Origin: Desulfobacterales bacterium
GTDB lineage: Bacteria > Desulfobacterota > Desulfobacteria > Desulfobacterales > UBA2245
Direction of reading: 5' to 3'
DNA: 64,000 nt
Assembly (NCBI GenBank): GCA_040771865.1
Contig: JAXGZF010000005.1
Coordinates: 124,001-188,000 of the forward strand
This document shows, in pieces, positions 2,615 through 43,182 of this stretch. The stretch's first letter is position 1, and each line of letters opens with the position of its first letter. The position numbers and the translations under genes were made by a program. The notes under the pieces are model-generated. The model did not search any database, was not told where the DNA came from, and saw nothing but the letters and a program-made list of their open reading frames with translations.

Positions 2615-3787
2615 TCAGGCTGCTGGTGTCGAACGGCGCTGTCTTCGAATATCGAGAATTCCGACGGTTAATGGGATGATCAGCATCAGAACGCCCAGGG
2701 ACGCGACTCCCTGCCAGGCGGCGCGGACGTATACCAGGCCGCTCAGGGTGATTCCCGAATAGCCTCCCAGATAATAAAAAAGCACGTAAAGTGAGTTGGC
2801 CCGTCCGCGGCTGGCGGTCAACTTCCGGTTCAGTGCCCCTGCGGCCGAAGCGTGAATGGAGAAAAAGCCCGCGCAGATTCCGGCCAGACTTATAATAATT
2901 CCAATCATGGAAGGAATCAGGGTCAGGCCGATGGAAGCGGCGAAAACCACTGCGCCCATGGCCATTGTGGCGCCGTTTCCGATCCGGTTGCTGATGTTTC
3001 CGGCCAGAGGCCCCATCACAACGCCGATCAGATACGACAGATACATCATCGTAATCACGCCGGTGGAGGCGTTGAACGGGGGTTTGGAAAGATAAAACGG
3101 CAGAAAGTTGAATATCGAGGAAAAGACGAAAAAGGCGGAAAAAGCCGCCGCGTAAATCATCATCAGCTCGGTGCGGCGAAGCAGTCCGAGAAAACCGATT
3201 TCATCAGCCGATTTTCCGGTTCGCCTGTTTTCAGAGGGAAGCCAGAAGGTCGCGGCCAGGGTGGCGGCCAGCAGAAAGATCGAGGCGCTGAAAAACGCAT
3301 ACCGCCAGTGCAGGGGCGGATGAATCCAGCCTCCGAGCAGGCGGCCCCCCAGCCCGCCGGCCACGGTTGCCGATATGTACGAACCCATGATGACATTGAG
3401 CCGGTGAAGCGGCAGGGTCCGGGAGAGGTAGGCGGCCACGCAGGTGGTCAGACAGGGCAGAAACAGCCCCTGAATGAACCGGGCCGCAATGAGGGCCGGA
3501 AGATTTTCCGACAGGGCGCAATACAAGCTGGATGCCGTGACCACAAAGCCGCCGACGGCGATCAGGGGCTTAACCCGGTACCGGTCCGCAAGCCGGCCGA
3601 AGGGCAGGTTGGCCAGAGCGATTCCCAGCACCACCATGGAGATGGTGAGGGAGGCCTGCGTTTCGCTGACGCCGAATTCGCTCTGAAGCACCGGCAGGAC
3701 CGGCTGGGTGATGTAAATCGTGGTAAAGGCGGCGGCTACCAGCCAGAAAACCACCGCGGCAAGACCTATGGATTTGAATCGCTTCAT
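2615..3787 (-). CDS. MFS transporter (YnfM-like)
   Basis: About 12 hydrophobic segments, motif A GRLADRYRVKP, IYITQPVLP and ANSLYVLFYYLGG. Confidence 0.85.
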   Translation of the reverse strand: MKRFKSIGLAAVVFWLVAAAFTTIYITQPVLPVLQSEFGVSETQASLTISMVVLGIALANLPFGRLADRYRVKPLIAVGGFVVTASSLYCALSENLPALIAARFIQGLFLPCLTTCVAAYLSRTLPLHRLNVIMGSYISATVAGGLGGRLLGGWIHPPLHWRYAFFSASIFLLAATLAATFWLPSENRRTGKSADEIGFLGLLRRTELMMIYAAAFSAFFVFSSIFNFLPFYLSKPPFNASTGVITMMYLSYLIGVVMGPLAGNISNRIGNGATMAMGAVVFAASIGLTLIPSMIGIIISLAGICAGFFSIHASAAGALNRKLTASRGRANSLYVLFYYLGGYSGITLSGLVYVRAAWQGVASLGVLMLIIPLTVGILDIRRQRRSTPAA

Positions 3788-3907
3788 GAAAAAATAAATC
3801 GCATGGCTTTTGGAGAGCCCGCGGTTTTAGGAAATCCGGCACTGTAAAAATCAGGGCCGATCGGCAAAATCATGCGAAGAATGCATTCAGGGTTTTCAAG
3901 TTCAGGA

Positions 3908-4324
3908 TCATGCCGGATACTCGCCGGTACGCTCCACGGTGGAAGGATCGGGGATAAAGGTGCAGAATTCAATTTTCTGAATCCGGTCGTCCTTGATTTC
4001 GAAAAGCACCACCGCCACCGTATTGTCTTTCTCGCCCGCAGCCAGCCGGACACAAGGCTCTCCGCTTTTGGCATAAAAGGTATAGGCCCTAGTCAAGGCC
4101 AGTTCGGCAAAAAGCCTCATATCCTCGGATTGGCTGGATTCCTCGAAGGTTTCAGACAGGAAGGCGGAAATTTCATCTTTTCCCCTGAGCTCGTCCAGCA
4201 CATTCTGGGAAGAATAGGCGACGTCATCCGCCAAAAGGAACATCAAGGGGGTTTTGTCCATCGTGTTGATGGCTTTTGCGTAAGCCCTGGAGGCATCGGA
4301 AGCCGTGAGTTTCTCTTGCACCAT
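3908..4324 (-). CDS. Hypothetical protein, possible SnoaL/NTF2-like fold
   Basis: ATG at 4324 with a purine-rich SD. Pattern AYAKAINTMD...LLADDVAYSS...LRGKDEISAFL...FEIKDDRIQKIE resembles NTF2-like proteins. Confidence 0.55.
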   Translation of the reverse strand: MVQEKLTASDASRAYAKAINTMDKTPLMFLLADDVAYSSQNVLDELRGKDEISAFLSETFEESSQSEDMRLFAELALTRAYTFYAKSGEPCVRLAAGEKDNTVAVVLFEIKDDRIQKIEFCTFIPDPSTVERTGEYPA

Positions 4325-18600: not shown

Positions 18601-21600
18601 GTCGTTTTCGATCAACGACGTGACGGTTCATGAAGGAGACGGTACGATCACCTTCACGGTGACCAAGGCTGGAGCGACGGCTTTGGCGTCTTCAGTGGAT
18701 TACACGGTCAATCCGAACACGGCGGTAACGCCGGGGGATTACACGGCGGGGACGAGCGCGCTGACGGGGACTCTGAACTTTGCGGCCGGAGTGACAACGC
18801 AGACGATCACGCTGAACGTCACCGACGACGCGGTATACGAGCTGACGGAGAACTTCAACGTCAATCTGAGCAACGCGGTTAACGCGACGATCTCCGATGC
18901 ACAGGGCATCGGCACGATTCTGGACGACGACAGTCTGCCGATCGCCACACCGGACAACGATGTGACGGTCTATGAAAAGGCCCTTGATTTGGACCAAGAT
19001 GGCGCTGACCTGGCTGCAGGTACGGTGAAAGGCACCGATCCGGGCAGCACGGGCGAGACCGACGCCAGCAATACCTTGGTGGGGTCGGTGAGCGGCGGTG
19101 CAGGCGGCTACACCTATAGTCTGGTCGGAAGCCCCAATGGAACCTATGGCGTGATCCAGATTAACTCTGATGGTACTTATATCTATACCTTGACCAAGCC
19201 GGTAACAACAACTCCGGCGGCAAATGATGGGGTGACTACCGCAGTAAAGGAAAGTTTCACGTATCAGGTGACGGATTCCGCAGGCCAGACAGCGACAAGC
19301 ACCATTTCGGTGAATATTGTCGACGACGTGCCCACGGCGGGCTCCCACATCGCGACCGTTGAGGAAGGCTCCAGCATCGGGACCAATGTGATGATCATCC
19401 TTGATCTCTCGGGAAGCATGGATTATTCCCCTGGCGTCACCGGTTACGCGACCCGTCTTGCCGTTGCCAAGGAGTCGATTGAGAACCTGATCAGTGAATA
19501 CGATGACAGGGGCGATGTGATGGTACGGATCGTAACCTTCAGCAGCAGTGCCAGCGCTCAAGGTACCGAGTGGATGACGGCAACGAACGCCCTGAGTTAT
19601 ATTAACGCTCTTTCCGATTATGCCGGCAATGGCTCCACCAACTACGACGCCGCCCTGCTGAAAGCGATGGATGCCTTTGACGACTCCGGCGCGATCGCAG
19701 ACGGTCAGAACGTCTGCTACTTCCTCTCCGACGGGGACCCAACTGCCCCATCGGGAAGCATCGGCATCAATGCGGCGGAAGAGACGGCGTGGGAGAACTT
19801 CCTTAGCGCAAACGACATCACATCCTACGCCTTGGGCATGGGTACGGGCGTGACGGCTGCCAATCTCAATCCGATCGCCTACAACGGCACTACCTCTGCG
19901 GAGATGGATGCCATCGTCGTCACGGATTTGAGCCAGCTCAATGCCGTCCTGTTGGGAACCGTTATCGACCCAGGCAATGTCGCGGGCAATCTTATTACAG
20001 ATTCGGATGCCGCATCTTTCGGGGCCGACGGGGCAGGTGATTTGGCGATCGTCTCCATCGCCCACGACGCGGACGGCAATCCCGGCACCCCCGATACGGT
20101 GTATACTACGTCCTCCGGCGAGTACAACCCCGCCACGATGACCCTCACCATCACGACCCATGAGGGCGGCACCCTCGAAGTGAATTTCTCGACCGGGGCT
20201 TATAACTACACCGCCCCGACGGAACTGACGGCGGAAACGGACGAGGTTTTCACCTACACCATCCAGGATGGCGACGGCGATACGGCGAGCAATACCCTGA
20301 CGATTCACGTGGATTACGACATCCCGCCTCGTCTGATCGTCGGTTCGGCGGATGACGACACCGGCACGTCAGGCCCTTCGTATACTTATGGGACTGGCTC
20401 CGGCACCATTGAGGGAGACGGCGGCGACGACATCCTGATCGGTGATCCGGGCGGGACCACGACGTTGAGCGAAGGCGATACCGCCAACATCGCCTTCGTC
20501 CTCGATACTTCGGGGAGCATGGGCACAAACATATCTTTTGGCGGCGGATCAATCTCGCGCTTGGCGGCGATGAAGCAAGCGGTCATCGACTCCTTGAACG
20601 ATCTGTATAATTCCGGGGCGGAGAATATCCGTATTCATATCGTTCAGTTCAATAACAATGGAAGCACCGTCGGCACCTACGACCTGACAAGCGGCGGTGT
20701 GGACGATCCAATGGCGCTTGCCAGTGCCATTTCCGCTGTCAACGGTCTCACCTCCGGCAATGGAACCAACTACGAAGGCGGCCTGCAAGAGGTGATCGAC
20801 TGGATTACTCCGGGAGGCAGTGATCCACTTGCCTCGGCCGACGTCAACAAGGTTGTGTTCATCTCCGACGGCGAGCCGAACCGCGCACTCAACAATTCTG
20901 GAGGAGTTGTTTCAGGCTTGAGCGCTGCCGTGGCTATGCAGCACGTCCTCGGCACGTACGACACCTGGCCCAACGGCAACGATGACTCTGTCAGCGAGGT
21001 CGCAACGATCGAAGGCTCCGGCTTCACCATCGAAGCCATCGGCATCAACGTCGGCGACACGGCACTGGGCTATCTCAGCCAGGTCGAGGGGTCGGGCGGA
21101 TCTGCCACCAACATCACGACGGCTGAAGAGCTGAGTGCCGTCGTGGGCGAGCTCTCCGGCGGCCAGTCGACCCAGCCCGCCGCGGCCGGCGACGATACCA
21201 TTATCGGCGGCGACGGCGACGACATCATCTTCGGCGACGCGCCGAACACCGATGCGCTTGCGGATGATCCTAATGGTGATGGCGCTACTGGCGATGATCT
21301 TGGAACGCCGGACGGCGCCGGCTGGCAGGTGTTCGACGACCTCGGATGGAGCGAATCCGCTATGGTCGACTACATCAATGACAACCACGAGGCGCTTTCT
21401 GCCGAGAGCGGACGCACCGGCGGAAACGACACTATTTCCGGCGGCGCCGGCGACGACATCATCTACGGCCAGGAGGGCAACGACATCATAGACGGCGGTT
21501 CCGGCAACGACATTCTGGTGGGCGGTTCGGGCGATGACATTCTGACGGGCGGTTCGGGCGCCGATACATTCAATGTCGGCGACGGGCACGACCACATCAC

Positions 21601-21856
21601 GGACTACAACAAGCTTGTCGACGGTGACAAGGTGGATATCAGCCACATACTTGATGTCGAAACTCAAGATAATCAACTCGCTGTCGTCGATAATGGAGGC
21701 AAGGCCAAGCTGGTGATCTACGATGATGCGGCGCATACAAACGAAATCGGGAGCGTCACTTTTGATACCATCGACTTCGGTGACGGCACTGGACAGGCAA
21801 ATGACGTTGATATGCTCAAAAACCTGGTGGATTTCGATGACGGAACTAACCCATAA
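12603..21856 (+). CDS. Giant T1SS-secreted RTX adhesin (LapA/BpfA-like, ~3080 aa if the frameshifts are corrected)
   Basis: SD TAAGGAGG; retention module (IIGKVVILYGTVKAVAPDGTVRVL...LEAAAAG); Ig-like and Calx-beta repeats; two vWA domains (DLSGS, DTSGS); GGxGxDxLx RTX repeats; C-terminal T1SS signal. Split into several ORFs by indels that all lie inside the tandem repeats. Confidence 0.9.
13395..14866 (+). repeat. Five tandem ~297-bp (99-aa) Ig-like adhesin repeats
   Basis: Units begin at 13395, 13693, 13991, 14288 and 14569 (DTIDTTTVSLS...EATATAQIS), with more diverged units before and after. Confidence 0.92.
15236..18950 (+). repeat. Eleven tandem ~339-bp (113-aa) Calx-beta repeats
   Basis: Units begin at 15236, 15575, 15909, 16248, 16587, 16924, 17263, 17603, 17942, 18281 and 18614 (NDVTVHEGDGTITFTVT...GIGTILDDD) and are nearly identical at DNA level. 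Confidence 0.93.
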
Positions 21857-21910
21857 CTAATCAAACCGAGGGGGACGGGCTCGAAAATGTCCTCCCATTT
21901 TCAAACGAAA

Positions 21911-21949
21911 ACTGCCGCGGAGGGTTGATCAAAATCCCTTCGCGGCAGT
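21911..21949. terminator. Hairpin terminator between the convergent adhesin and LuxR genes
   Basis: ACTGCCGCGGAGGG-loop-CCCTTCGCGGCAGT; a T-run follows on the minus strand. Confidence 0.7.
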
Positions 21950-21973
21950 CCTTGTTATAGCAGTAATTTTTTT

Positions 21974-22594
21974 TTATCCCTTGTTGATCAGCAGAGCCAG
22001 GCCGAGGCGGTTGCCGGTTTTGGTCTTTTCATAGGCGGAGGTCAGGTGGGCTTTCACGGTCCGTTCGGTGATACCGAGATCGGCGGCGATTTCCAGGTTG
22101 GTCCGGCCAACGGCGACCTGTTCGGCGACGATGCGTTCCATTCGGGTCAGGTCGGCCAGTTTGCGGGTAACGGCCGGCGCTTCCTGCTTTGGCGCCCGGG
22201 CCGCTGCTGCATCGAGGATCAGGCGTTGAATGAGCTGCTGGCCGAGCCAGACGCCGCCGCCGCTGATAATGCGCACCGCCTCCGAGAGACGTGCAGGCGA
22301 GATGTAGGTGTTCCCGTATCCGGCGATTCCGGCTTTCAAAAAGGAGAGTCCCTCTTCCTCGTTCGGCTGGTCCGAAAGCAGAAAGAACCGGCCTGAGGGG
22401 ATCGCTTTGCGCAGCTGTACAAACGCGGGAATATCCGCCAGAGAGCGGTGCAGCAGGATCAGATCAAATTTTTTGGCCATGAACAGCCGTTTCACTTCGG
22501 CCAGCGTTGTCGCCCTCTCCACGGGGCGGGGGGAAAGCAGTTCGCTCCACCTTATGGTCACCGACGGGTTTGAACTGCTCAGCAGAATTGCCAT
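21974..22594 (-). CDS. LuxR/NarL-family transcription factor with a degenerate receiver domain
   Basis: C-terminal HTH LTRMERIVAEQVAVGRTNLEIAADLGITERTVKAHLTSAYEK; receiver-like N-terminus with FDLILLH; starts 4 nt after the lapC stop. Confidence 0.88.
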   Translation of the reverse strand: MAILLSSSNPSVTIRWSELLSPRPVERATTLAEVKRLFMAKKFDLILLHRSLADIPAFVQLRKAIPSGRFFLLSDQPNEEEGLSFLKAGIAGYGNTYISPARLSEAVRIISGGGVWLGQQLIQRLILDAAAARAPKQEAPAVTRKLADLTRMERIVAEQVAVGRTNLEIAADLGITERTVKAHLTSAYEKTKTGNRLGLALLINKG

Positions 22595-22598
22595 GCGA

Positions 22599-23984
22599 TC
22601 ACCTCTCTCTCAACGCCATGTGCTTGGCTCTCAGGACCGGTTTTAACAGGTACGTCAGAATCGTCTTCTTGCCGGTGAGAATTTCCGCTGTTGCAACCAT
22701 GCCAGGTATGATCGGCAGGGGGTTGTCCTTTGGACCGAGATAGTTCCGGTCTGTTCTCAACTCGACGAGATAATAGCTGTTTCCCTTGTCGTCCGTGAGG
22801 CTGTCCGCTCCGATACGCTCAAGCTTGGCGTCGAGGCCGCCGTAAATTGTGTAGTCGTAAGCGGTAATCTTGATCTTAGCCTCCTGTCCCGGCCTGAGAA
22901 AAGCGATGTCGGAGGGTTTGATTTTTGCCTCGATCAGAAGCGTCGCCTCGGTCGGAACGATCTCGACGAGGTTCATTCCGGGCTGGACGACCCCGCCTAC
23001 GGTGTTGATCAGCAGGCGGTTGACCGTGCCGTTGACTGGGGATTTTACGTGCGTCCGGTCGAGCCGGTCCTTGAGTGCGATGGAGGTGGCGGCGCCCTCA
23101 CCGAGCTGTGACGAGACCTCATTTAATTCCGCCTTTGCCTTGTTGAGAAAGTTCAACCTGAGCTCCTTGAGCGCCACCTGGCTTTCTCCGATCTTGGAAC
23201 GGACCCGGGGAATGGCCTGCCGCGTCGTTTCGATTTCGCCGAGCATCTCGCTGGCCCTGCGCTCCGTCTGAAGGACTTCCATCTCCGCAATGGCGCCTTT
23301 TTCCACAAGTGGTCGCAGCAGAGCGATTTCTTTCTGAAAAAGGTTATAGGTCTTGTTGAGTTCATCGAGCCGGACGTTGAGTTCCTTTAATTCATTGACG
23401 CGCTGATTGATCTGTTCCTGCTTGATTTCGATGCCGGAACGAAGCTCGTTCTGCCGGGACAGGTAGAGCTGCTGCTCGTGCAGGCCTATATCGGGTGCTT
23501 CCTGCATGACTTCCTCGGGAAGATGGAAGGGCGTGCCGCTCGTTTCGGCTTGCAGGCGCGCCGCCTTGGCCTTGTTGGCGAGATACTTGGCGCGGTTTTC
23601 CTGAAAGGACGACGCAAAACGGGTATCATCGATGCGCAGCAGCAGCTGGTCTTTTTGAACGGTGTCGCCCACCTTGACGAGGATCTCCGCGAGGATGCCG
23701 CCCTCCAGATTCTGAATGACCTGAATCTGTCCGGCGGGAATCACCTTGCCTGCTCCGCGTGTAACTTCCTCGATTTCCGAAACCGAGGCCCAGTAAAGAC
23801 CGGCGATGAACAGGACCAGGACCGTCCAGATGATTGCTCTGCCTCCCCGGGGGGACTGGGCAAGGATAGAGGTCCGGATATCCGTGGCGAAGTCGACGTC
23901 TTCGGCCTTTATGCGATAAAACAACTCCTTGGGATTCGATTCGATTTTCGACGGCGCCGGATTATTTTCGGTTGTTTCTGTCAC
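22599..23984 (-). CDS. lapC: HlyD-family T1SS periplasmic adaptor (LapC-like)
   Basis: EEVTRGAGKVIP...QVIQNLEGGIL, KSPVNGTV, TVGGVVQPG, ITAYDYTIYGGL and a C-terminal YLLKPVLRA...ALRER. Confidence 0.93.
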   Translation of the reverse strand: MTETTENNPAPSKIESNPKELFYRIKAEDVDFATDIRTSILAQSPRGGRAIIWTVLVLFIAGLYWASVSEIEEVTRGAGKVIPAGQIQVIQNLEGGILAEILVKVGDTVQKDQLLLRIDDTRFASSFQENRAKYLANKAKAARLQAETSGTPFHLPEEVMQEAPDIGLHEQQLYLSRQNELRSGIEIKQEQINQRVNELKELNVRLDELNKTYNLFQKEIALLRPLVEKGAIAEMEVLQTERRASEMLGEIETTRQAIPRVRSKIGESQVALKELRLNFLNKAKAELNEVSSQLGEGAATSIALKDRLDRTHVKSPVNGTVNRLLINTVGGVVQPGMNLVEIVPTEATLLIEAKIKPSDIAFLRPGQEAKIKITAYDYTIYGGLDAKLERIGADSLTDDKGNSYYLVELRTDRNYLGPKDNPLPIIPGMVATAEILTGKKTILTYLLKPVLRAKHMALRER

Positions 23985-23999
23985 AGAGTTTTCTCCTGC

Positions 24000-26173
24000 T
24001 TACATTTTGAGCTGGCCTCTCCTCATCGCCTCGAGGACGGAGGTCTTGGGTCCGTCCGCCACGATGGTTCCGTTGTCGATGACGACAAGGCGATCCACCA
24101 TCTCCAGCAAAGAGGCCCGGTGCGTGATCAGGATCAGGGTCTTGTCCCGGATCACTTCCGCCAGTTTCTTTCTGAGCCGGACCTCGGTCCGGTTGTCCAT
24201 GTTGCTTGTCGGTTCGTCCAGCACCAGTACGGGCGGATCGAGCAGCATTGCCCGTGCAATGACGATGCACTGCCGCTGCCCTCCGGAGAGCCCCCGGCCC
24301 AGTTCCCCGATCTCCATATCATACCCGAGAGAATGCTTTTTGACGAATTCATCGACGCCGGCCATATCCGACGCGCGCAGAATGGTCATGTCGTCCACGT
24401 CATGGGTGCCCATGGTGATATTGTTGCGGACGGTGCCCCGGAAAAGCTGAATGTCCTGGGGGACATACCCGATGAACCGGCGCAGCTCCGTAGGATCGAT
24501 CTGGCGGATGTCCGTTCCGTCCATCGTGACCATGCCGCTCTGGGGTTCGTAGAGGCCCAGCATGAGTTTGCCCAGCGTGGTCTTTCCCGAGCCGATGGGG
24601 CCGATGATGCCGACCTTTTCTCCGGCGCGGATCTCCAGCGTGATATTGTTGAGAACCTTGGCGGCCTGGCCGGGGTAGGAAAAGGTCAGGTTTTTGATTC
24701 CGATCGCGCCGTCGAAACGGGCCCGGTGCAGGAAAGTCTTGCCAGCGGGTCTCTCCACGGGAAGATCCATGATGTCGTTGAGTGTTTTGAGGGCTTCCTT
24801 GGCCCGCTGGTAGCGCGCTGCGAGACCCACCATCTGCCCCATGGGCGCCAGCACCTGCCGGGACAGAATGACCAGGGCGATCAGGCCGCCCTGGGTAAGT
24901 TTGCCATCGCTGATCATGTAAACGCCGCCGATAACCACGGCCACCACCACGGCGCTTTGCATGAAGAAGGAGAGGTCGGTGACCGAACCCGACAGGAAAC
25001 GCGACCGGGAGCTCCACTGCGCGATATAGCTGACCGCCTCCTCCCAGGCACGCTGAATCTGGCTTTCGGCGCCCAGCATCTTGATCGTTTCCAGGCCGGA
25101 GAGCCCCTCCACAAGGATGGCGTTTTTCTGGGAGGATGCTTTGAAGGTCCTTCCGACCGCCTTCTGCAGGGGAATCTGGATCAGGAGCGCGTAGATCAGA
25201 AGAAACGCGATTACGGCCAGAAAGAGGTAGACGATCGGGCCTCCGAAATACCAGACCACGAATAAACCCATCAGCATGAATGGCAGATCGATCACAGAGG
25301 TAATGGAAAAGGAGGTGACAAAATCCCGAATGCTTTCGAACTCCTGAAGATTTCGGGTAAAAGATCCGATGGACTGGGGCCGGACTTCCATTTTCAGATC
25401 CAGAACCTTCTGCAGCAGCATGGCGGAGATTCTGAGATTGGCCTTGTTTCCCGCCTCGTCGATAAAATAACTCCGCAATGCCCGCATCAGCACGGCAAAG
25501 AAATAGATCACCATGATTCCGATGGCCAGCACCCACAAAGTCTCCACCGCGTTATTGGGAATGACGCGATCATAGACGATCAGGACAAAGAACGGGCTCG
25601 CCAGGCCGAACACGTTGATCAGAAAGGAGGCCACCAGTACATCCCGGTATATGCGCCAGGATTTGAAAATTGTTCCCCAGAACCAGCCCTTACCTGAACC
25701 GAGGGCCAACTCGTCCAAAGATTTTTTTTCCAACCGGTATTTAGGACGAACGAAAATAGAATAACCGGCGTAGAGCCTCGCCAGTTCGAAATTTCGCATC
25801 AATCTTTCCAGCGCCTGTTTCCGGCAGCAGGATCTTAAACTGCTCACCTGTTGGGTGTTCTTGCCGACCAGCACGCATGCCTGACGGCCTGAGCGCAAAG
25901 TTCTGCCGGAAGTTGCAGGAGAGAAATCTTATCGAGGACCGTTTTACAACGCGGGATGACAGGTCAGGCCCGGTCCGCCGCCCTTGAAACAGCCCCACGG
26001 TAAGGCGATTCTTCATAAGCGGCAGTCCGAACCAGTCCCGTACGCAGCAGGCCGTCCGTGCAGCTTTGTCAGTTGACCAGACAATCCAGAAGCGGATCGT
26101 CAAAAGCATCCATATCCCTTTCGAGCTTCCAATCTGTCGCAGGGTCTTGTTCCCTTGTTTCAGGTATATTCAT
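24000..26173 (-). CDS. lapB: T1SS permease/ATPase (LapB/LssB-like); 5' part frameshifted
   Basis: ATG at 26173 reads MNIPET...DDPLLDCLV (C39-like domain start), with indels at about 25850-26075. The ABC membrane domain, Walker A GPIGSGKT, LSGGQRQ and LDEPT are intact in 24000-25898. Confidence 0.88.
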
Positions 26174-26318
26174 TTTTTACCATCCAGGGAAACCATCGTT
26201 CGCGGCGTATTGAATCCAAGTTTCTATCTTTCAATCATTCTATTTACTATATATTTTTTTAAAAACTAATGTTATTTTCTCAAAATAGATTTGCCTCGGT
26301 AAATCATCCGAGGACATC

Positions 26319-26643
26319 ATGTTGTACGTAGAGCGGGACAAAGAAGGCAATATCATCATGATTCACAGCTCTCCCAGATCGAGCGCCGATGAAGAAAAAC
26401 ATGGTATGGATGAAGAAATTCTGGATTTTCTGAATAAACCGTCAGCGCTGGTCTCGCAGTTGCTGCTGTCCCTGTCGGACATGGGGATTATCCGCCTGCT
26501 GGAAGACCGATTGACTCCCTGATTCAGAAAAACGTCATTTGTTATACGGAACTTCCGGAGCAGGCCTATGGGTAACCTGAAAAACGCAAGCGGTTGAGAG
26601 AAACGATCACCCTCAGACCTTGACGGTTGACGATATCCTGTGA
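26319..26643 (+). CDS. Small lap-locus-associated protein (family often mislabelled tryptophan synthase beta-like); frameshifted
   Basis: SD GAGG; MLYVERDKEGNI...SDMGIIRLLED, then a shifted frame gives IDSLIQKNVICYTELPEQA...RKRLRE...VDDIL* ending at 26643. Confidence 0.65.
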
Positions 26644-26649
26644 GTTCGT

Positions 26650-28605
26650 ACGCATAAGTTATTTGCAGCATCCTGATCGATTTCGCTGTCTGCGACATAT
26701 CCCTGGATCGCGTCGACGTTCAGTTCGCTGAGAATCTGCACCTGCTGCTCGGTTTCCACGCCTTCCGCGATCACCATGATGTCGATGCTGTGCGCGACGC
26801 CGCACAATGAGCCGATGAAGAAGCGGCTGTCGCTTCTTGTCCTTGAGTTCTCCGGTGTAGGCCTGGTCGATCTTGACATAGTCCGGACGCATGGATTTGA
26901 GATATCCTGTGCTGGAGAAGCTCTGCCCGTAGTGATCGAGGCTCATGGCGTGGCCGAGTCCAGCACGAAGGCGCTGAATTCCTTCACCATTTCCGCATTT
27001 GCAGCGCGCTGAATTCGGCGAATTCAAGATGATCCGCGCCGATTTCAGGCAAAGGCTTTCACCAGGTTTGAGCCACTGCTGGAACGTAAATCGCCTTTTC
27101 AGGCGGTGTTCGCCTGCCAAAGCTGAAGCCGCCAACTGGTTGCGGATTCATCCGCATCACCCTCGATAACGATGCGAAGCCCGGCGGTGACATCAGATTG
27201 AGTCGTTCGGCCAGGCATAAATACGCCCGCACGGAGTTTAAGCTGTCTTCCCGGATGATTCGAGAAAATCTCCAGATGGAGGATTCGATTTTGTCCTTTG
27301 TTTTTCCGGATTGCCGGGCGTCAAGGCTGACACGCCGTTCCATGAGGGCTTTTTCAGCATTTCCTTCCACTGCTGCTGCCCCCATCGGCATTTTGTCCGT
27401 TCCCTCGGTAATCGTACGGACGCTCCGTTGTTGGGTCCCGTCTGTCTGGGCAAGGCGGTTGTGGGCGAAATCCGGTCGAAAAGCAGATGCCGAGCGTTGC
27501 GCGGCGGTTTTCATGTTGCGCCCCCACATGGCCGGATATTGTCCGGAACGGCGAGCTGCTCCAAGGCAGCTGTTCTATTCGATGGGCGATATTGCGGGCG
27601 ATCTTCTCGGCATCCCAGGAAGGGGCGTCCGGGAGAAAAATGCCGAAGTCGCCCCCCGTGAGCCGTGAGAGAACGCAGCTCTCGCATTGCCTTGTGACTT
27701 CCTGAAGCTGCGCGCGGCCATCCTTTGCAGAAATGCGTCTCCGGCCTGAAAACCCCAGTCCTGATTGAGCCTGTCCAGATCGTTCAGCTTAACTGGCAGT
27801 AAAATTCCCTTTGTGACGCTGTCCTGGCGATCGAGCCGGGCAGTGACCTGGGTGTCGAAGTAGCGGCGGTTGCCCAGTCCCGTTACTGACTGGCGATAGG
27901 CGCGTTCCCGGTCTCTCCGCCAGAACGACCTTGCTCTTCGAACATCTCTTTGACCTTATTCGTCATGCGGTTCATGGCTTCGACCACTCGCCTTGAGCTC
28001 AATGGTCCACGGTGCGCGTTTTGAATTTCATATTCCTTTCTGCAAATGGCGTCTGCCTGCTGTTCGGCCAGCACCAGCGGTTTGAGCAGCATCAGCCCCA
28101 GGCTTCCTGCTACGAGTACAAAAATGCCGCAGGCCACAAACCAGATGGTCGTTCGGATCACATCCTCCCAGAGTGTCTTGTATGCATAACCCGGATGACT
28201 CTTCACATAAACGGACCCTGCCTGATTCCATCCAGACATGATGCCGGCGCTGGCATCGGGGGCTTCCAGCCTGATCCAGCGAATGAACCAGGGAGGCACG
28301 TTCTCGATGGAGACATCGAGATTGCGCTCGATCAGAACATCGCCCCTTACGTCCGACAGCTGAATGGAACCATAATACCCGCGATCAAATACGGCATTGA
28401 TCATGCTTTCAATGGTCGGCATGTCCTTTTCGATCATATACTGCGTGATGGACAGCGCAAGGGAGGTTGCCGTATCCTGTGCATGAGACTCGAGCTGATC
28501 TGCCAGGAACGTGCGGGTGCTCTCTACCTTGGCAAGCCAGGTTCCGGTAAAGAGGATGAAAAACAAGGCAAGGGTAAAAATGATCAGTTGGCGATAAAGC
28601 GTCAT
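26650..28605 (-). pseudogene. lapD: LapD-like c-di-GMP receptor (periplasmic-HAMP-GGDEF-EAL) with many frameshifts; 3' end approximate
   Basis: N-terminus MTLYRQL...QLESHAQDTATSLALS...NAVFDRGYY; fragments LGNRRYFD, degenerate SRLTGGDF, PDYVKIDQAY and AEGVETEQQ...VDAIQGY fall in different frames. Confidence 0.85.
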
Positions 28606-28620
28606 ATTTCTGCCCCCATT

Positions 28621-29364
28621 TTACAGTTTGCTCTCCGATAATTTTTTCTGCAGATTGCGCCAGGGCTTGAGCCGTTCGCTTTTTGCGGGGAGATGGCCCT
28701 GTGATCGCTGTTTGGCCGTCCAGAGGCCGCTGCCGTTGAAGCCCAGAACAGGCTGCAGGTCGGGCCGCTTCGATGCGGGAGCGATGCCGTCTATGAGATT
28801 GTCGAGAATCAGCGGTTCGGCTGTCGGTGTGCTGTAATAAGACAAAACCATGTGGGCGATTCCGTACTGAAGGGCCTTGACGTACATGATATTCAGTTTT
28901 TCTTCCTTTACACCGATCTCTTTGAGGGTGAAAAACTTGGCGATTGCAAAATCCTCGCAATCCCCTGCATTCCTGCAGAGAAACTCGAGAGGGGTAGCCC
29001 AGTAGTCCTTCGTTTTCCAGACTTCGATATCACTGGCGTACCGAACCCGGCTGTTGAAGAACTGGTTGACAATTTCAAGTTTTTCCAGGTCCGATTTGCT
29101 TCTGTCCGTCGTCCGAATGATGTCTTCCCATTCCAGCAGACGCGTTGCCGCTTCTTTGCCGTACCTAATCTCCGCCTGTTTCAGAAGTTCCCGATTGATC
29201 CGGAAGCTTTCATCCATTCCGGCGCTGGAAACAGCCGCCGCCATGAAAATGATCAAAATCAGCCGGGAAAACCTGCTTCTCACGGCTTGTCCGATAAAGG
29301 CGGTCAGAGTCGATCCGAACCGCGACCTGGGTCGATCCATCCTTCCGATTTTTCCGACCTCCAC
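28621..29364 (-). CDS. lapG: Transglutaminase-like periplasmic cysteine protease (LapG)
   Basis: DYWATPLEFL, catalytic GDCEDFAIAK, AHMVL and LILDNL; immediately upstream of lapD. The true start may be further downstream. Confidence 0.92.
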   Translation of the reverse strand: MEVGKIGRMDRPRSRFGSTLTAFIGQAVRSRFSRLILIIFMAAAVSSAGMDESFRINRELLKQAEIRYGKEAATRLLEWEDIIRTTDRSKSDLEKLEIVNQFFNSRVRYASDIEVWKTKDYWATPLEFLCRNAGDCEDFAIAKFFTLKEIGVKEEKLNIMYVKALQYGIAHMVLSYYSTPTAEPLILDNLIDGIAPASKRPDLQPVLGFNGSGLWTAKQRSQGHLPAKSERLKPWRNLQKKLSESKL

Positions 29365-29451
29365 AAAATCATGTTGATTCCGGAAAACTTGAAAACCACG
29401 GCATCGGTTTCCCGGTTCAGCCGCTCAATAAAACCAATCTCGCATATATAA

Positions 29452-29503
29452 ATAACCTTTGAAAATGGATCCGCGAGCTGCGGATCCAATATTCAAAGGT
29501 TAT
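29452..29503 (-). terminator. Long hairpin between lapE and lapG
   Basis: ATAACCTTTGAA..TGGATCCGC-GAGCT-GCGGATCCA...TTCAAAGGTTAT, a stem of about 21 bp. Confidence 0.6.
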
Positions 29504-29643
29504 AGAAAATAACATCGTTACGACTTTTGAGAAGAGAGATTTCCGTTTATGGTGCGACAGGTTCCGGATATTTGCTTGTTACGGACCGCCTCTCTGTCTC
29601 ATCCGACTTTGAAGACGCAACTTTCCGCAGTTCATCAGCCGGG

Positions 29644-30999
29644 TTATTCCTTTGCAGCTGCAACCTCGGCGCCTTCATCTGCCGTTGCTTCTTCGACAAT
29701 GCTTGCTTCAGGCCACTCCAGCCCCATCGAATGAACGAGCTTGCCCATTCCGCTCAGGATTCTGAATTCAGAGTAAGTCTGATCGTAGTTGGCTTTTGCG
29801 AAATCGGATTTTGCGTTAATCGCTTCCGCCTGGGTGTCCAAGAGATCAAACATGGTGCGCCTTCCAATGCTCCACTGCGTGGCAAAGGCATCAGCGGTTG
29901 CTTCGGAGGCCTTGACATAATCCTCGAGATGAGCAACGCGTTCCTTGGCCGCTTCGTTGGCTTCCCAGGAAAGGCGAATCGACTGGACGGTCTCACGTTC
30001 GGTATTTTTTAGAATCTCTTCCGCTTCCTTGATCAGGTACTTTGTTTCCTGAATTCGTCCGTAATCCCGTCCGCCATTGAAAAGATTGTAGCTGACAACG
30101 GCAGCCGCCGAAAAATAGTCCCGACGGTAGTCGTTGGGGTATACCTCATCTTCCCAGTTGTAATCCGCCGCAACGTCAAGCGTCGGAGAGAGCAGTCTCC
30201 TGGCAACTTCATACTGCAATTGTCTCGCCTCCAGATCAGCCTTGGCGGACTTGATAATGGGATAGTTGTTCAGCGCAAAGTGTTCCGCCTCATCCAGAGT
30301 CGCGGGAAGGGCTGCTTCCAAACGCTCTATTTCGGCAAGCTGCCCCGGATGCCGGCCGACGACCGCCTGGTAATCCGTTATTGCGTCGTTCAGGTTTGCC
30401 GCCGTCACGACGACGTTGGACTGCGCCAGCGCGAGACGACCCATTACCTGTTCGAGTTCCGCTCTGCTGTCCACGCCGGACTGCATTCTCAACTTGACCT
30501 GGTCGGCAATGCGTTCATGGTTGACGAGGTTTTGCTTGGCAAGTTCGTGGAGTTCGCTGCTCAGGAGCACATTGATGTAAACCCGGGTTGTCAGAAGGGC
30601 GATGTTTTCCGACGTGCCCTGCAGGAGAAAGGCCTGGGACTTTTCGCGCGCTTTCTGCCGGTCCACATCGGCTACATCCGCGCCGCCCCGGAATAAATTC
30701 TGGCGAGCGCCCAGCGTATGCTGCTTGGGCCAGGATTTATCGTTGGAAATCTCGGGTTTATCCTGTTTCATATAGCCCAATGAAAATGCGCCGCCAAGAG
30801 TTGGGTAATAGGCTCCTTTTGCCTGTACGACCTCCTGGGTCCTGGCCTGACGGTTATAGCCCAACTCCTTGATCTGCGGATGCGTTTTAAGTACTTGTTT
30901 AACCGCTCTCGGCAAATTGTCGGCTTGAACCTGGCCGCTTCCGAGGGTCATTATCCCCGCAAAGGCAATGACCGCGATTCTGAAAAACAATTTCATCAT
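29644..30999 (-). CDS. lapE: TolC-family outer membrane protein (LapE/AggA-like)
   Basis: SD GAGGAGG; signal peptide; AKGAYYPTL, QNLFRGG, SYNLFNGG and QWSIGRRTMFDLLDTQAE. Confidence 0.92.
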   Translation of the reverse strand: MMKLFFRIAVIAFAGIMTLGSGQVQADNLPRAVKQVLKTHPQIKELGYNRQARTQEVVQAKGAYYPTLGGAFSLGYMKQDKPEISNDKSWPKQHTLGARQNLFRGGADVADVDRQKAREKSQAFLLQGTSENIALLTTRVYINVLLSSELHELAKQNLVNHERIADQVKLRMQSGVDSRAELEQVMGRLALAQSNVVVTAANLNDAITDYQAVVGRHPGQLAEIERLEAALPATLDEAEHFALNNYPIIKSAKADLEARQLQYEVARRLLSPTLDVAADYNWEDEVYPNDYRRDYFSAAAVVSYNLFNGGRDYGRIQETKYLIKEAEEILKNTERETVQSIRLSWEANEAAKERVAHLEDYVKASEATADAFATQWSIGRRTMFDLLDTQAEAINAKSDFAKANYDQTYSEFRILSGMGKLVHSMGLEWPEASIVEEATADEGAEVAAAKE

Positions 31000-31622
31000 A
31001 CCCGCCTCCTCATCAGTTGGTTAATTGCCCGGTACTTATATAAAAACTGAGTAAACAAAACCCTGAAAGCTTAAGTACTATATAAAGAATATTATGCTTA
31101 TAAAAACACCGACGCCATATAACTTACAAGTTTAAATGCATTTTAGCAAACCATAAATTCATTAAAAATTCCATAAAAAAAATTCTACGCGTAAAATATT
31201 TTGTGTTAATTTATTGTATGCTTGTTCAGCGGGCCAATTTAAAAACGTTCCACGGCGGACCCTTAAAAGAAGGTCCGGGCGCGAATTGTGTCAAGAATGA
31301 AAGGGCGAATGTTCAAAAATCTATTGATAAACTTGGATAACCCTCAAAATGCCGATTTTTGGAAACATCCTGCCCTGTGTTTATTTAACACATTTTTAAA
31401 ATAATTCACTTGATTCAGGACTTTTGAGACCACTTTTATTCTGCAATTTTCGTACCGAAAAAACAAATTTCAAACCATCTGACGCTATAACCCTTTTCAA
31501 CCGCTTTTTTCGGGCAAAACAGGCATGTATTTCCAAGACAGTTGTCTTGTCCATCCCCCTGGTCCTTGCGAATGTGACAATTATTGCATATATTTTTCAA
31601 AAATTGTCATTAAGGAACTTTC

Positions 31623-31939: not shown

Positions 31940-32027
31940 TGGTGCCTGGGACGGGAATCGAACCCGTACAGCACTATGTACCGAGGGATTTTAAGTCCCT
32001 TGCGTCTACCAGTTCCGCCACCCAGGC
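31940..32027 (-). tRNA. tRNA-Leu(TAA)
   Basis: GCCTGGG acceptor stem, AGGGA-CT-TAA-AA-TCCCT anticodon arm, long variable arm, GGTTCGATT T-loop and encoded CCA. Confidence 0.97.
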
Positions 32028-39195: not shown

Positions 39196-39331
39196 AATTT
39201 TTCCGAAATTTTATCTAATAATATAATCCGATTATCTCAAAAATGTCAAACTTTTAGCTGAAATTCTTCACAAAAAAACACGACACCCCTCAAAATTTTT
39301 TCAGGATAAGATAATATTTTCCAAAAGACTT

Positions 39332-39763
39332 TTACAGGGCGTAAAGTTCCTGCCCGTTGAGTACCTTCACGCCGTTATGAAGCAATAGTTTGACCGCATC
39401 ATCGATGTTGTCAAACCGGAATATCATCACGGCATTCTTCTGACTCTGCTGAACAAAGGCATACATATATTCGACATTAAGCCCGGAACGCCCCAGCAGT
39501 GCCAGTATTTTGTAAAGGCCTCCGGGGCGGTCTTCAACTTCCGCAGCCACCACATCGGTCTTTCCTACGGAAAACCCCCGGTCTTTGAGAACTTTCTCAG
39601 CCTTGGCCGTATCATTGACGATCAGCCGCAGGACTCCGAAATCGCTGGTGTCAGCCAGGGCAAGGGCCCGAATGTTCACATTGGCGTCAGCCAGAATGGA
39701 TGCCACTTCGGCCAGACGCCCGGATTTATTTTCAAGAAAAACCGAAATCTGCTGGACTTTCAT
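39332..39763 (-). CDS. Tandem ACT-domain protein
   Basis: [47 protein letters not shown] and NVEYMYAF. Confidence 0.9.
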
Positions 39764-39806: not shown

Positions 39807-41108
39807 CTATATTTTCCGATTATCAATTACGCGAACCGCCTTGCCTTCGCTCCTCTGAATGCTCTTGGGTTCAACGAGTTTCACTCTGGCCGACACGCCA
39901 AGATAATCCTTGATATGCTTCTGAATCATGCGCTCAATATTCTGAAGCTTTTTGACCTCATCGGAAAAAAGCTTTTCTCCGACCTCCACCTTGACCGTCA
40001 GAACATCCAGATTGTCCTCTCTGTCCACAACCAGCTGATAATGGGGTTCCACCTCATGGATTTCCATCAAAACGCTTTCGATCTGGGATGGAAATACGTT
40101 GACGCCCCGGATAATGAGCATGTCATCCGTACGGCCACTGACTTTGTTCATCCGCACCAGAGTCCTGCCGCAGATACAGGGTTCACAGTTCAGCGATGTG
40201 ATGTCCCGGGTCCGGTAGCGTATTACGGGAAAAGCCTCTTTGGTTATCGAGGTGAACACGAGTTCTCCGGTTTCTCCATAGGGGAGTGATTCTCCGGTAT
40301 TCGGATCTATGATTTCGGGTATGAAATGGTCCTCGAAAACATGCAGGCCTTTTTTGGCCTGATAACATTCAACGGACACACCCGGCCCGATTACCTCGCT
40401 CAGCCCGTAAATGTCGATGGCAGCCAGATACAGTTTGCGTTCGATTTCCTCGCGCATGTTTTCAGACCAGGGTTCGGCGCCGAAAATGCCGGCCTTGAAG
40501 TTTAGATCCGCAAAAGAAACCCCCATTTCTTCGGCCGCCTCGGCAAGGTGAAGGGCATAGGAGGGCGTACAGGTCAGTATGGTGGGCTTGAAGTCCTTCA
40601 TGATCAAGACTTGGCGTTTGGTATTTCCGCCGGAAACCGGAATCACCGATGCGCCGAGCTTCTCGGCTCCGTAATGAGCGCCCAGTCCTCCTGTGAAAAG
40701 CCCGTATCCGTATGCATTATGAATGATATCATCGCAGTTGGCGCCGCCGGCGGCCAGAGATCTGGCCATGAGTTCGGCCCATGTCTGGATGTCGCGCGCC
40801 GTATACCCGACCACGGTCGGTTTGCCCGTTGTACCCGAAGACGCATGGATGCGTACCACCATATCCATGGGAACGGCAAACATGCCGAAAGGGTAATTAT
40901 CCCGCAAGTCCTGCTTGGTAGTAAATGGAACGTTTTTCAGGTCTGCCAGCGATCGGATTTGACCGGGGGTGATTCCCGCTTCCTGAAAACGTTTTCTGTA
41001 AAAGGGAACCATCGCATAGGCTCGTTCCAAAGACGTTTGAAGCCGACGCAGTTGAAGTGATTCCAAGTCTTCTCTCGGCATGGTTTCATGCCTGATGTCG
41101 TAAATCAT
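39807..41108 (-). CDS. paaK: Phenylacetate-CoA ligase
   Basis: [51 protein letters not shown] and [20 protein letters not shown]. Confidence 0.93.
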
Positions 41109-41186
41109 GGCCTGCTCCTTTGCTAAATCCTTCGTGTTATCTGTGGGGTACCAGAAATCCGGTCCCATGCCAATAAAATTTTAATG

Positions 41187-41215
41187 AAAAAGGCCGCGGG
41201 TTAAAACCCACGGCC
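41187..41215 (-). terminator. Intrinsic terminator in the paaK leader
   Basis: Minus strand reads GGCCGTGGG-TTTTAA-CCCGCGGCC-TTTTT, about 80 nt upstream of the paaK ATG. Confidence 0.75.
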
Positions 41216-41289
41216 CAGAAAACAACAAAACCATGGGTTGAGATTTTTCCGTCCACCCATGGTTTTAGTTCCGAATTTTGATTTCCGCC

Positions 41290-41376
41290 TTACGGATTCA
41301 GCCCATGGATAGACCTTCGAAAAAAAGAAAGTCTTCCATAAAGCCCAAGAAAACTGAGGCGGAACAATAACTGCAA
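41290..41376 (-). CDS. Putative 28-aa leader peptide MQLLFRLSFLGLYGRLSFFRRSIHGLNP
   Basis: SD GGGGAGG 7 nt before a TTG start; 4 Phe, 1 Tyr and 7 Leu codons; stop lies just before the hairpins. Confidence 0.5.
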   Translation of the reverse strand: MQLLFRLSFLGLYGRLSFFRRSIHGLNP

Positions 41377-41484
41377 CGCGATGCCTCCCCAATTCGACGT
41401 CTCAAAAATTCTGTCTTTTCGGCGGTATTGTTTTGATTTCTATAAAAAATTGCACCACGTCCTGTCAAGAAAAAAATATGCTTC

Positions 41485-43182
41485 CTATCCTCGTGAATCC
41501 CCTCCGTGTTTCGCTGAATACGCCGTCGGATTAAGCTCGATTATATATTTTCGAACACCCTTGAAAATACCTTCACACAGATGATCCTGATACTTGGCAT
41601 TGGTGAGCCTTCGACATTCTTTAGGATTGCTGATAAACGAAGTCTCTACCAGGATCGAAGGCATCTGTGCGCCCAGCAAAACATAAAAAGGCGCCTGCTT
41701 TACCCCTTTATTGCGAATGTCCGGATAAACGCTTCGCATCCGGCTGATTACGGATTCATGAACGTGCCCCGCCATGCGGCTTGATTCATTGACTTTGGCA
41801 TTGAACATCAGATCATTGAGGATGGACTGAAGATCGCTGATATTTTTGGTTGAAGTGGCATTTTCGCGCGCCGCCACCAAGATTGCGTCATCATCGGTGG
41901 CAAGATTTAAAAAGTAGGTTTCAATGCCGTTGGCGTTGCTGCTCTTGGCTGCATTGGTATGAATTGAAATAAAGAGATCCGCATTTTTGGTGTTGGCGAT
42001 CGCGGTTCTTTCTTCCAGAGTCAGATATCGGTCGCTGTTCCGCGTCAGAATTACCTCGCAGCCAAGGTCTTTTTCAATTTTTTTGGCCAGACGGCGGGAA
42101 ATCTGCAGTGTAATATCCTTTTCGTGAACGCCCTTAACATGTCCTGGAGCCCCGAAGTCCTTCCCGCCGTGTCCCGGATCGATGACGATGCGCCTGACGC
42201 CAAGCGCCAGCTGCTTGGCCAAAGCGCCCGGAGAAAGTTTGCTTTTCGAATCGGGCGCGATCGGTTGGCCGGGGGATTTTGAAGCGGTTTGACGTTCTTC
42301 ACCCCAGACGTCAATAACAATTCTGAAAGGATTTTTCAGAGAGAATATCTTATAGTTTCGAAACGATTTGATATCCACAACCACCCGAACCGAATCCAGT
42401 GTATACTGTCCGATCCGGACATTGCTGAGCAGATCGTCGTTGATCGGAATGTTTGTTTGCATATCCTTGCGCAGACGGCTGTTGGCCATGTCCACATAAA
42501 GCCGTGGGGGCTTGCCGATCGAAGGATCTTTTTTAAGAATGTGATGCGTAAAGGTTGTCTCATTATCCGCATTGACGACGACCCGGGTGTAGCTTGGATT
42601 TGACCAGAAACGCAGTTCTTCCACAACAGCTGCACCCGTAAGCACAGAATCCTTTACATGATTTTCAGATTCCTGCACCAAGGCGGGCTTTTGAGTTGTT
42701 TCGTTTTTCACCGATTCCTTGATAGGAGTGACGGTAAGCCTATCCAGCTCTGCTTGGGCTTTTTCACAATATCGGCTTTTGGGGAAACGTTTTACGATAC
42801 GGCTGAAAATATCCGCCGCCTCTTTTTCATCCGCCTTCCGCCCTGAGTATCGGTTAAGTTCCAGGAAAAGCTTTCCGGACATATATAAGCCTGCTGCAGC
42901 CCATGGACCCGTTGGATCGCTGCGATACACCTGCTCAAACTGTTCAATGCAGATTTTCCAGTTTTGCCGGTACTGTCGTTTGGATGGATTTTCGACCATC
43001 TGACGATAACTGCGATCCGCTTTCATGTAAAGTTCTTTGGGATCCTGGGCGGGGCATCGATCAGGATTGAAAACCCCGGACAGTACAAAAGCCAGAACCA
43101 GACAGACAGTGAATTTTATTCCGGCCTTGAGAAAAGTCGCTTTTCTACACCAATGTTGTTTGTGATCGCAGATGAAAACCAT
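41485..43182 (-). CDS. amiC: N-acetylmuramoyl-L-alanine amidase (TPR-like, AMIN and Amidase_3 domains)
   Basis: RFWSNPSYTRVVV (AMIN), IVIDPGHGG, HEK, FISIHTNA and PSILVETSFISN. Confidence 0.9.
   Translation of the reverse strand: MVFICDHKQHWCRKATFLKAGIKFTVCLVLAFVLSGVFNPDRCPAQDPKELYMKADRSYRQMVENPSKRQYRQNWKICIEQFEQVYRSDPTGPWAAAGLYMSGKLFLELNRYSGRKADEKEAADIFSRIVKRFPKSRYCEKAQAELDRLTVTPIKESVKNETTQKPALVQESENHVKDSVLTGAAVVEELRFWSNPSYTRVVVNADNETTFTHHILKKDPSIGKPPRLYVDMANSRLRKDMQTNIPINDDLLSNVRIGQYTLDSVRVVVDIKSFRNYKIFSLKNPFRIVIDVWGEERQTASKSPGQPIAPDSKSKLSPGALAKQLALGVRRIVIDPGHGGKDFGAPGHVKGVHEKDITLQISRRLAKKIEKDLGCEVILTRNSDRYLTLEERTAIANTKNADLFISIHTNAAKSSNANGIETYFLNLATDDDAILVAARENATSTKNISDLQSILNDLMFNAKVNESSRMAGHVHESVISRMRSVYPDIRNKGVKQAPFYVLLGAQMPSILVETSFISNPKECRRLTNAKYQDHLCEGIFKGVRKYIIELNPTAYSAKHGGDSRG

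Follow-up and report, generated by a model that had tools for sequence, protein, structure and literature searches.

The paaK-like gene at 39807-41108 of a 64,000-nucleotide stretch of Desulfobacterales DNA (the window) encodes a 433-amino-acid ligase and is followed, as the second gene of the operon, by a gene for an ACT-pair protein. A gap of 377 nucleotides (nt) separates it from the preceding gene, amiC, and all the leader features described below fall within this gap. We propose that the gap holds a ribosome-mediated leader-peptide transcription attenuator, which most probably makes transcription of paaK-ACT depend on how much charged tRNA-Phe is available. All window coordinates of the attenuator and paaK region refer to the minus strand.

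The leader contains a Shine-Dalgarno (SD)-like purine run (41384-41390) placed 7 nt ahead of a TTG codon at 41376, which starts an open reading frame (ORF) of 28 codons plus TAA (41290-41376). This ORF has Phe at codons 5, 9, 18, and 19, Tyr at codon 13, and 7 Leu after the start, with the tandem Phe codons (18 and 19) at 41325-41320. The purine run, the start, and these residues all lie where a preliminary description of the locus had placed them, and a similar purine run is visible by eye in several relatives. Six segments, which we call A to F, share one repeated near-palindromic core. Segment A (41327-41341), the 5′ arm of the first hairpin, lies within the leader ORF directly ahead of the tandem Phe codons. 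Segment B (41303-41318) has two alternative partners: 41318-41303 is the 3′ arm of A:B, and 41314-41303 pairs with 41262-41251 of segment C over 12 bp (−18.6 kcal/mol). Segment C (41251-41266) can also pair through 41266-41255 with 41238-41227 of segment D (41227-41239) in another 12-bp helix (−17.1 kcal/mol), and D can pair through 41239-41229 with 41215-41205 of segment E over 11 bp that include G-U pairs (−14.4 kcal/mol). Segments E (41216-41205) and F (41201-41191) form an intrinsic terminator (41187-41216, −21.8 kcal/mol) between the leader ORF and the structural gene, with a T run at 41191-41187. Its 11 pairs, 8 of them G-C, are both the highest counts among the 10 terminator-like sites seen between 39000 and 44000, where 5.8 ± 2.3 sites were expected. 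The 341-nt leader folds with z = −4.24, none of 100 shuffles being as stable, and the A:B hairpin is present in both the minimum free energy and the centroid folds of the window leader, with the Phe codons in its loop. The leader stop codon lies 10 nt after B and 24 nt ahead of C. We also observed a 12-nt inverted repeat, 83% complementary, between the start of the leader ORF (41360-41371) and the sequence just before segment C (41262-41273).

The preliminary description had paired its segments 1 and 2, which are our C and D, had proposed that segment 2 can switch to the 5′ arm of a U-tailed terminator, and had pointed to an additional copy of the core shortly ahead of the stop codon of the leader ORF. 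All of these are present, and the additional copy is segment B. What did not survive is the four-segment scheme (1:2, 2:3, and 3:4) in which they had been arranged, since segment 1 begins 24 nt beyond the stop of the leader ORF and a translating ribosome would never mask it; on its own, the scheme cannot work. Because the core copy B pairs with C over 12 bp, the layout is one of six segments, A to F, like that of the his leader, with the copy inside the ORF as the missing link. Two other reading frames were considered and rejected. An overlapping aromatic-rich frame exists, as had been noted, but it has no conserved start and is not the frame kept in relatives, and a third frame holds a short internal ATG ORF; neither of the two is conserved, whereas the frame set by the codon inside segment B (the anchor frame) is. 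At Rfam gathering scores, the whole window gave matches to two tRNAs and nothing else. Within 41050-41550, at E-values up to 10, there were three chance matches below threshold, none of them to a leader, T-box, or riboswitch family.

A scan of a genome collection with the window PaaK gave 80 loci with 74-96% identity, all from Desulfobacterales or Syntrophobacterales. The nearest, L001, is a metagenome-assembled genome (MAG) of Desulfobacteraceae with 96% PaaK identity, and blastn with the leader matched it at 90% over 404 nt and found pieces in five further loci. On reading, the same build was visible in many other upstream regions, and 22 leaders were aligned (alignment A1, 282 columns, 52% mean column identity; A2 is its trimmed version). 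Left out were L037, whose ORF stops before B and whose terminator is poor, and L002 and L035, which have C to F and no Phe ORF. A covariance model built from A2 (R1) was searched in the window and in all 80 loci, and it placed the element upstream of paaK in 25 of the 80 at E < 1e-5, that is, in the 22 model leaders and in L037, L002, and L035, which scored 40-54 bits. These three copies (L002 3666-3819, L035 3652-3783, and L037 3767-3928) are degenerate, having kept C to F and the terminator and lost the Phe ORF. The 64-kb window has one true copy, the other matches in it being to a tRNA region (E 0.12) and to the opposite strand of the palindromic hairpin. Five weak matches at the same place in Desulfosarcina-like loci (L044, L050, L051, L057, and L061; E 0.02-0.12) are read as remnants of the attenuator; degenerate copies and remnants together occur mostly in Desulfosarcina-like genomes. 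Carriers are scattered on the PaaK tree, with at least nine changes of state needed, a pattern that fits an old element lost many times. Among them are the cultivable Desulfosarcina widdelii PP31 (L032) and Desulfoferrobacter suflitae DRH4 (L045), and AP021875 and CP159846 are complete carrier genomes. The distance from terminator to paaK, 83 nt in the window, is 200-420 nt in some relatives (L016 ~3800-4000, L021 ~3580-4000, L032 ~3790-4000, and L035 ~3790-4000), and L016 and L021 have a conserved stretch in common between terminator and paaK that may be due to an inserted element or may form a further regulatory region.

The helices of both alternative forms are conserved. For the terminated form (C:D and E:F), 90.0% of 492 cells in A1 were paired and 12 of 23 pairs were changed on both sides, while slid controls were 30-50% paired. 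The read-through form (B:C and D:E) had 93.8% of 503 cells paired and 7 of 23 pairs changed on both sides, compared with 33-45% pairing in slid controls. In neither case did any of 500 shuffles reach the score. B:C alone was 97.3% paired with four pairs changed on both sides, and one position is U-A in 14 sequences and C-G in 8; E:F was 94.0% paired with compensatory changes in 8 of its 11 pairs, and pairing in D:E and C:D reached 90.0% and 86.4%. RNAalifold, run on A2 with no structure supplied, returned exactly B:C and E:F, with 12 of 24 pairs changed on both sides. The alignment of paaK-ACT leaders suggested in the preliminary description has yielded covarying stems for terminator and antiterminator alike. 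No conserved unpaired pocket or loop beyond the helices was found in the aligned leaders. Judging from the folding z and, more decisively, from conservation with compensatory changes across the 22 leaders, we consider that the helices are more than chance.

Upstream of the leader, a promoter-like site (41439-41468) begins 16 nt after the amiC stop, with a −35-like element at 41468-41463, an 18-nt spacer, and a −10-like element at 41444-41439, from which we infer a transcription start near 41432. The attenuator region extends in this way past the coordinates first given for it. A simple promoter scan did not list the site, as the last base of the −10-like element is not T, and its support comes instead from conservation: allowing at most one mismatch over 10 positions, the box recurs in 18 of the 22 leaders, 92-148 nt upstream of B and with the same spacing. 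The leader lies downstream of this predicted promoter and upstream of the regulated gene, the position of an attenuator. The gene in front varies, being amiC in the window and in L001, an enoyl-CoA hydratase gene in most loci, and a TPR gene in Syntrophobacteraceae-type loci. Because the upstream gene differs among loci while the element stays with paaK, comparison of the loci indicates that the element belongs to paaK and not to the preceding gene.

An anchor-frame ORF with a start codon was found in 18 of the 22 leaders, with 25-34 codons and ATG (13), GTG (3), or TTG (2) as its start, and Phe makes up 125 of the 532 residues of these ORFs (23.5%). Over the 25 codons before B in 21 sequences (all except L024), the anchor frame has 139 Phe codons in 525 and the other two have 81 and 70, so in-frame Phe codons are about 1.8 times as frequent as those out of frame. 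The leader stop falls exactly 10 nt after B in 13 of 22. In L001, ATG stands at the position of the window's TTG in the same frame, and the 28 codons are identical but one; most relatives have a Phe triplet at the place of the window's tandem Phe codons and a Phe run upstream of it. The frame is kept and the in-frame Phe excess holds for the family as a whole, an outcome that agrees with the conserved Phe codons expected from the preliminary description.

A related element was also found before a different gene. In two Desulfamplus MAG loci, R1 matched directly downstream of a leaderless paaK-ACT (L070 6018-6171 and L066 6018-6172, with 57.8 and 53.8 bits and E 2e-10 and 2e-9). This element comes with a promoter-like box and a Phe-rich leader ORF of its own, and every segment is present, though with a different core sequence. 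The gene behind it (L070 6255-8228) encodes 657 amino acids that combine a 3-deoxy-D-arabino-heptulosonate 7-phosphate (DAHP) synthase with a ferredoxin-like domain, a prephenate dehydratase, and an ACT domain. Since a related element precedes this DAHP synthase/prephenate dehydratase fusion, the attenuator family can be tied to Phe supply, and the strongest argument now at hand for Phe sensing by the family is this second target, a bona fide Phe biosynthesis gene.

Taken together, the central claim of the preliminary description, a ribosome-mediated aromatic (Phe) attenuator before paaK-ACT, is supported by the covariation of both forms, the kept ORF frame, the Phe excess, the promoter box, and the related element before the DAHP synthase/prephenate dehydratase gene. 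In the mechanism that we propose, transcription would start just after amiC, and the 5′ leader would encode the 28-codon peptide and segments A to F. When Phe is plentiful or the leader is untranslated, the default form with A:B, C:D, and E:F would arise, and most transcripts would terminate near 41187, short of paaK. A ribosome well supplied with Phe would reach the stop codon and cover the G+C-rich end of B (its last five bases), leaving C to pair with D and then E with F, and termination would follow. When charged tRNA-Phe is scarce, the ribosome would stall on the Phe codons just upstream of B, which in the window are the tandem pair at 41325-41320. With the first tandem codon in its A site, the ribosome would cover segment A and only two bases of B, and free B could capture C as soon as C is made; D would then pair with E, F would be left without a partner, and the polymerase would enter paaK-ACT. 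In several relatives, read-through would also extend into a Liv-type ABC transporter.

The B:C step of this switch was reproduced in folding simulations with a ribosome footprint at a set codon, using a transcript ending just after C. With codon Phe18 in the A site, 10 of the 12 B:C pairs formed, and with no ribosome, a ribosome at the stop codon, or one stalled at Phe9, none of the 12 did. The covariation and the masking simulation together point to an antiterminator that excludes the terminator and depends on ribosome position. The folding check that had been suggested, with and without ribosome masking, has a mixed outcome, as the switch is seen on the truncated transcript and the full-length leader never gave the antiterminator.

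Several observations weigh against our interpretation. At equilibrium, the full-length leader always folded into C:D and E:F, even when masked (−38.9 kcal/mol, versus −33.0 kcal/mol for B:C and D:E). As full-length folds always return the terminator, read-through would have to depend on the kinetic order of folding, and by analogy with the classical cases, the switch would be kinetic; stalling, folding order, and the response to Phe are what we infer from the layout of the leader and the established his and trp models. A:B is the weakest of the five helices (75.5% paired versus 38-64% in slid controls), its both-side changes are no better than in shuffles, and the window's A:B is in a different register from the other leaders. 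The aligned sequences are related, which means that shuffle counts are not probabilities, and for this reason the argument for the helices rests on the slid controls and the compensatory changes. About 50 of the 80 loci have no element, with three (L004, L007, and L043) in which the upstream sequence is too short to judge. Four of the 22 leaders have no anchor-frame ORF, L024 at a contig end and L031, L048, and L067 with another frame or an early stop, and L002 and L035 keep C to F with no usable Phe ORF, while L037 has an early stop. The region is T-rich, and Phe codons are common in all frames. Finally, the window leader is among the Phe-poorest of the family, as 4 of its 28 codons are Phe and the anchor frame has no more Phe codons than the others (4, 5, and 4 by frame). 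The window copy may depart from the rest of the family in specificity or efficiency.

The last point bears on an alternative in which the window copy has been retuned or is decaying. Phe codons replaced by Leu would then make it answer to Leu and Phe, as in the multivalent attenuation of the ilv and thr leaders, or it would work poorly and mostly terminate. The window and L001 have 7-8 Leu and 4 Phe codons, versus 0-4 Leu and 6-10 Phe in the other leaders, and the lack of an in-frame excess in the window agrees with this. Also in its favor, the masking geometry predicts that a ribosome stalled at Leu codons 10, 12, or 16 would cover A and not B. A shift to Leu sensing, or a weakened sensor, is possible on these grounds. 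However, the tandem Phe codons occupy precisely the critical, conserved position directly before B, the five helices and the stop-codon spacing are intact, and frame and structure have been kept while the window and L001 came to differ by ~10% in the region; in the trp leader, two control codons suffice. For control codons, the case is good across the family and weak in the window by itself, but the tandem Phe codons stand directly before B. We consider retuning or decay improbable and expect the window copy to work, given the position of those codons and the intact helices.

Much less likely still is that a protein, a small ligand, or uncharged tRNA reads the alternative helices, with the small ORF incidental to a T-rich leader. 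The copies in L002 and L035 that keep C to F without a Phe ORF would suit such a switch, the conservation of the C-terminal part of the peptide could be explained by RNA pairing alone, and Phe codons are frequent in every frame. Against it, no Rfam family, T-box included, matched, and outside the helices the aligned leaders show no conserved unpaired pocket or loop. The frame with a start codon and an SD-like run is kept in 18 of 22 leaders with its ~1.8-fold in-frame Phe frequency, the distance from stop to B is fixed in 13 of 22, and a gene for Phe biosynthesis, again with a Phe-rich ORF in front of it, is the second target. In a last alternative, the hairpins would do no more than terminate the amiC transcript, with the paaK promoter further downstream and the ORF and alternative pairings due to chance. 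This would be consistent with a terminator 270-300 nt after the amiC stop, but it is hardly tenable given the conserved promoter-like box between amiC and the leader, the lack of any minus-strand promoter-like site listed by the simple scan between 41190 and 41108 (from the terminator to the paaK start), the occurrence of the element with paaK behind three different upstream genes and again before another gene, and covariation that supports helices excluding the terminator.

The Phe attenuator also bears on what the paaK product does. The encoded ligase has the Pfam domains AMP-binding and AMP-binding_C_2 and scores 628.5 bits, slightly short of the 646.3 cut-off, against the NCBIfam equivalog TIGR02155 (PaaK) over its full length (residues 8-431), and the closest solved structure is the Burkholderia phenylacetate-CoA ligase PaaK (PDB 2y27, E 8.3e-153). 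The analysis suggests that this PaaK helps to supply Phe rather than to degrade phenylacetate: scavenged phenylacetate would be activated and converted to phenylpyruvate by reductive carboxylation. Such an anabolic role is strengthened because the regulation is shared with a Phe biosynthesis gene, and likewise because Liv-type transporter genes (a Peripla_BP_6 binding protein and/or two BPD_transp_2 permeases) lie downstream of paaK-ACT in 6 of the 11 leader-bearing loci examined, on the same strand (L026 5960-8368, L031 5786-9193, L039 5868-9255, L040 6032-8138, L041 6108-7274, and L045 7271-9243). The window locus has neither the enoyl-CoA hydratase gene nor the Liv-type transporter. Neither iorAB nor an aminotransferase gene was found in the window or the 17 loci scanned, and the same search returned no pad or paa catabolic genes and no Phe genes. 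In a broader reading, which we hold tentatively and at somewhat less than even odds, paaK-ACT, together with the Liv-type transporter in relatives, would belong to a Phe-supply regulon with the DAHP synthase/prephenate dehydratase, and the widespread paaK-ACT(-liv) clusters of anaerobes, induced by uncharged tRNA-Phe and not by substrate, would salvage phenylacetate, or an aryl acid related to it, and use reductive carboxylation to make Phe again. A bolder rider to this reading is that the lineage of the window would be retuning its sensor from Phe to Leu by single-base codon changes.

Around the attenuator, the minus-strand genes are mutS (45813-43186), the AMIN/Amidase_3 amidase gene amiC (43182-41485, stop codon 41487-41485), the paaK-like gene behind the 377-nt gap, with its own SD at 41120-41115, and the gene for the ACT-pair protein (39332-39763; Pfam ACT_8, E 2.2e-28). 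The latter has 143 amino acids when counted from the ATG at 39763, and the ORF as listed begins further upstream, at 39826; an ACT_8 protein of 143-157 amino acids is encoded behind paaK in the loci scanned. Beyond the ACT gene, a sigma-70-like site (39220-39249, minus strand) matches at 11 of 12 positions, the best match in the region, and is followed by an 86-amino-acid ORF and a GAF/T2SSE ATPase gene. This strong promoter-like site suggests that the attenuated operon ends after the ACT gene and that the genes beyond form a separate unit.

Elsewhere in the window, we found a LapA-type adhesin locus (12603-31000) with six consecutive same-strand ORFs carrying LapA, Calx-beta, VWA, and RTX repeats (12603-21856), a LuxR-type regulator, HlyD, ABC and OEP export genes, a LapG-like Peptidase_C93, and a LapD-like sensor. 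This last gene seems to lie in two parts, LapD_MoxY_N at 27883-28605 and EAL at 26659-27135, and both it and the LapA-type adhesin could be broken or the result of mis-assembly. The usual N-degron pair, clpA and the adjoining gene for a Leu/Phe-tRNA protein transferase, lies at 53440-56467, and the two tRNA genes matched in Rfam are at 31943-32027 (minus strand) and 52973-53046 (plus strand); these are unconnected with the attenuator.

To our knowledge, almost all leader-peptide attenuators control amino-acid biosynthesis or tRNA-synthetase genes and come from gamma-proteobacteria and a few other groups. The locus described here adds a well-conserved predicted Phe attenuator, outside Rfam, before a phenylacetate-CoA ligase and ACT gene, often with an ABC transporter, in sulfate reducers and syntrophs. 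Its regulatory logic would be rare evidence on function, as Phe starvation is predicted to induce, along with a Phe biosynthesis gene, one that annotation usually calls catabolic. It also makes testable, for a widespread cluster, the old idea that anaerobes build amino acids from aryl acids through reductive carboxylation, and the strongly covarying element, ~160 nt long, can serve annotation as a new RNA family.

Older work on rumen bacteria concerned an aryl-acid route to aromatic amino acids, and Porat et al. reportedly described an indolepyruvate oxidoreductase route from aryl acids to aromatic amino acids in Methanococcus maripaludis. The aryl-acid route of this methanogen is cited in the part of PMC4162585 available to us. 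It would give a PaaK-type ligase an anabolic role, from phenylacetate through phenylacetyl-CoA and phenylpyruvate to Phe, which fits induction by Phe shortage; the difference is that no oxidoreductase or aminotransferase gene is linked to paaK in the window or the 17 loci. Full-text literature returned nothing relevant on paaK or phenylacetate with a leader peptide, attenuation, ACT, a transporter, or reductive carboxylation, with subscription-only papers, supplements, and a 2004 comparative study of proteobacterial attenuators outside its scope. In the available main text of the attenuator survey of Naville and Gautheret from 2010 (PMC2965389), paaK, phenylacetate, phenylalanine, and Desulfo do not appear.

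Leader peptides of the pheL type have ~15 codons. In pheL-pheA and pheM-pheST of gamma-proteobacteria, a short Phe-rich leader peptide controls a terminator in response to Phe-tRNA, according to the available text of PMC3082878. The paaK leader resembles these systems (Rfam Phe_leader) in its Phe-rich peptide, intrinsic terminator, and predicted Phe-tRNA signal, but it is not homologous to them, as there is no Rfam match at E-values up to 10, and it differs in having six segments, 25-34 codons, and paaK-ACT as its target. One sentence of the same text states that Desulfobacterium autotrophicum, of the same bacterial order, may use pheL before pheA; the idea of a Phe leader is the same and concerns pheA only, and paaK is nowhere named in that paper, where 'paa' has no occurrence. 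By its description, this pheL is probably the counterpart of the element that precedes the DAHP synthase/prephenate dehydratase fusion of Desulfamplus (L070 and L066).

In architecture, the closest comparison is with the his leader of Salmonella and E. coli (Rfam His_leader), a six-segment attenuator. Both have control codons in the first segment, A:B, C:D, and E:F in the terminated form, B:C and D:E in the read-through form, and termination when the leader is untranslated, as we predict for paaK. The paaK leader differs from it in having Phe instead of His codons, no Rfam match, one repeated core, and a CoA ligase as its target instead of a biosynthetic operon. The mechanism is, in short, a known one, the classical six-segment attenuator of the his type with a Phe signal as in pheL-pheA, and it is the target that is unusual.

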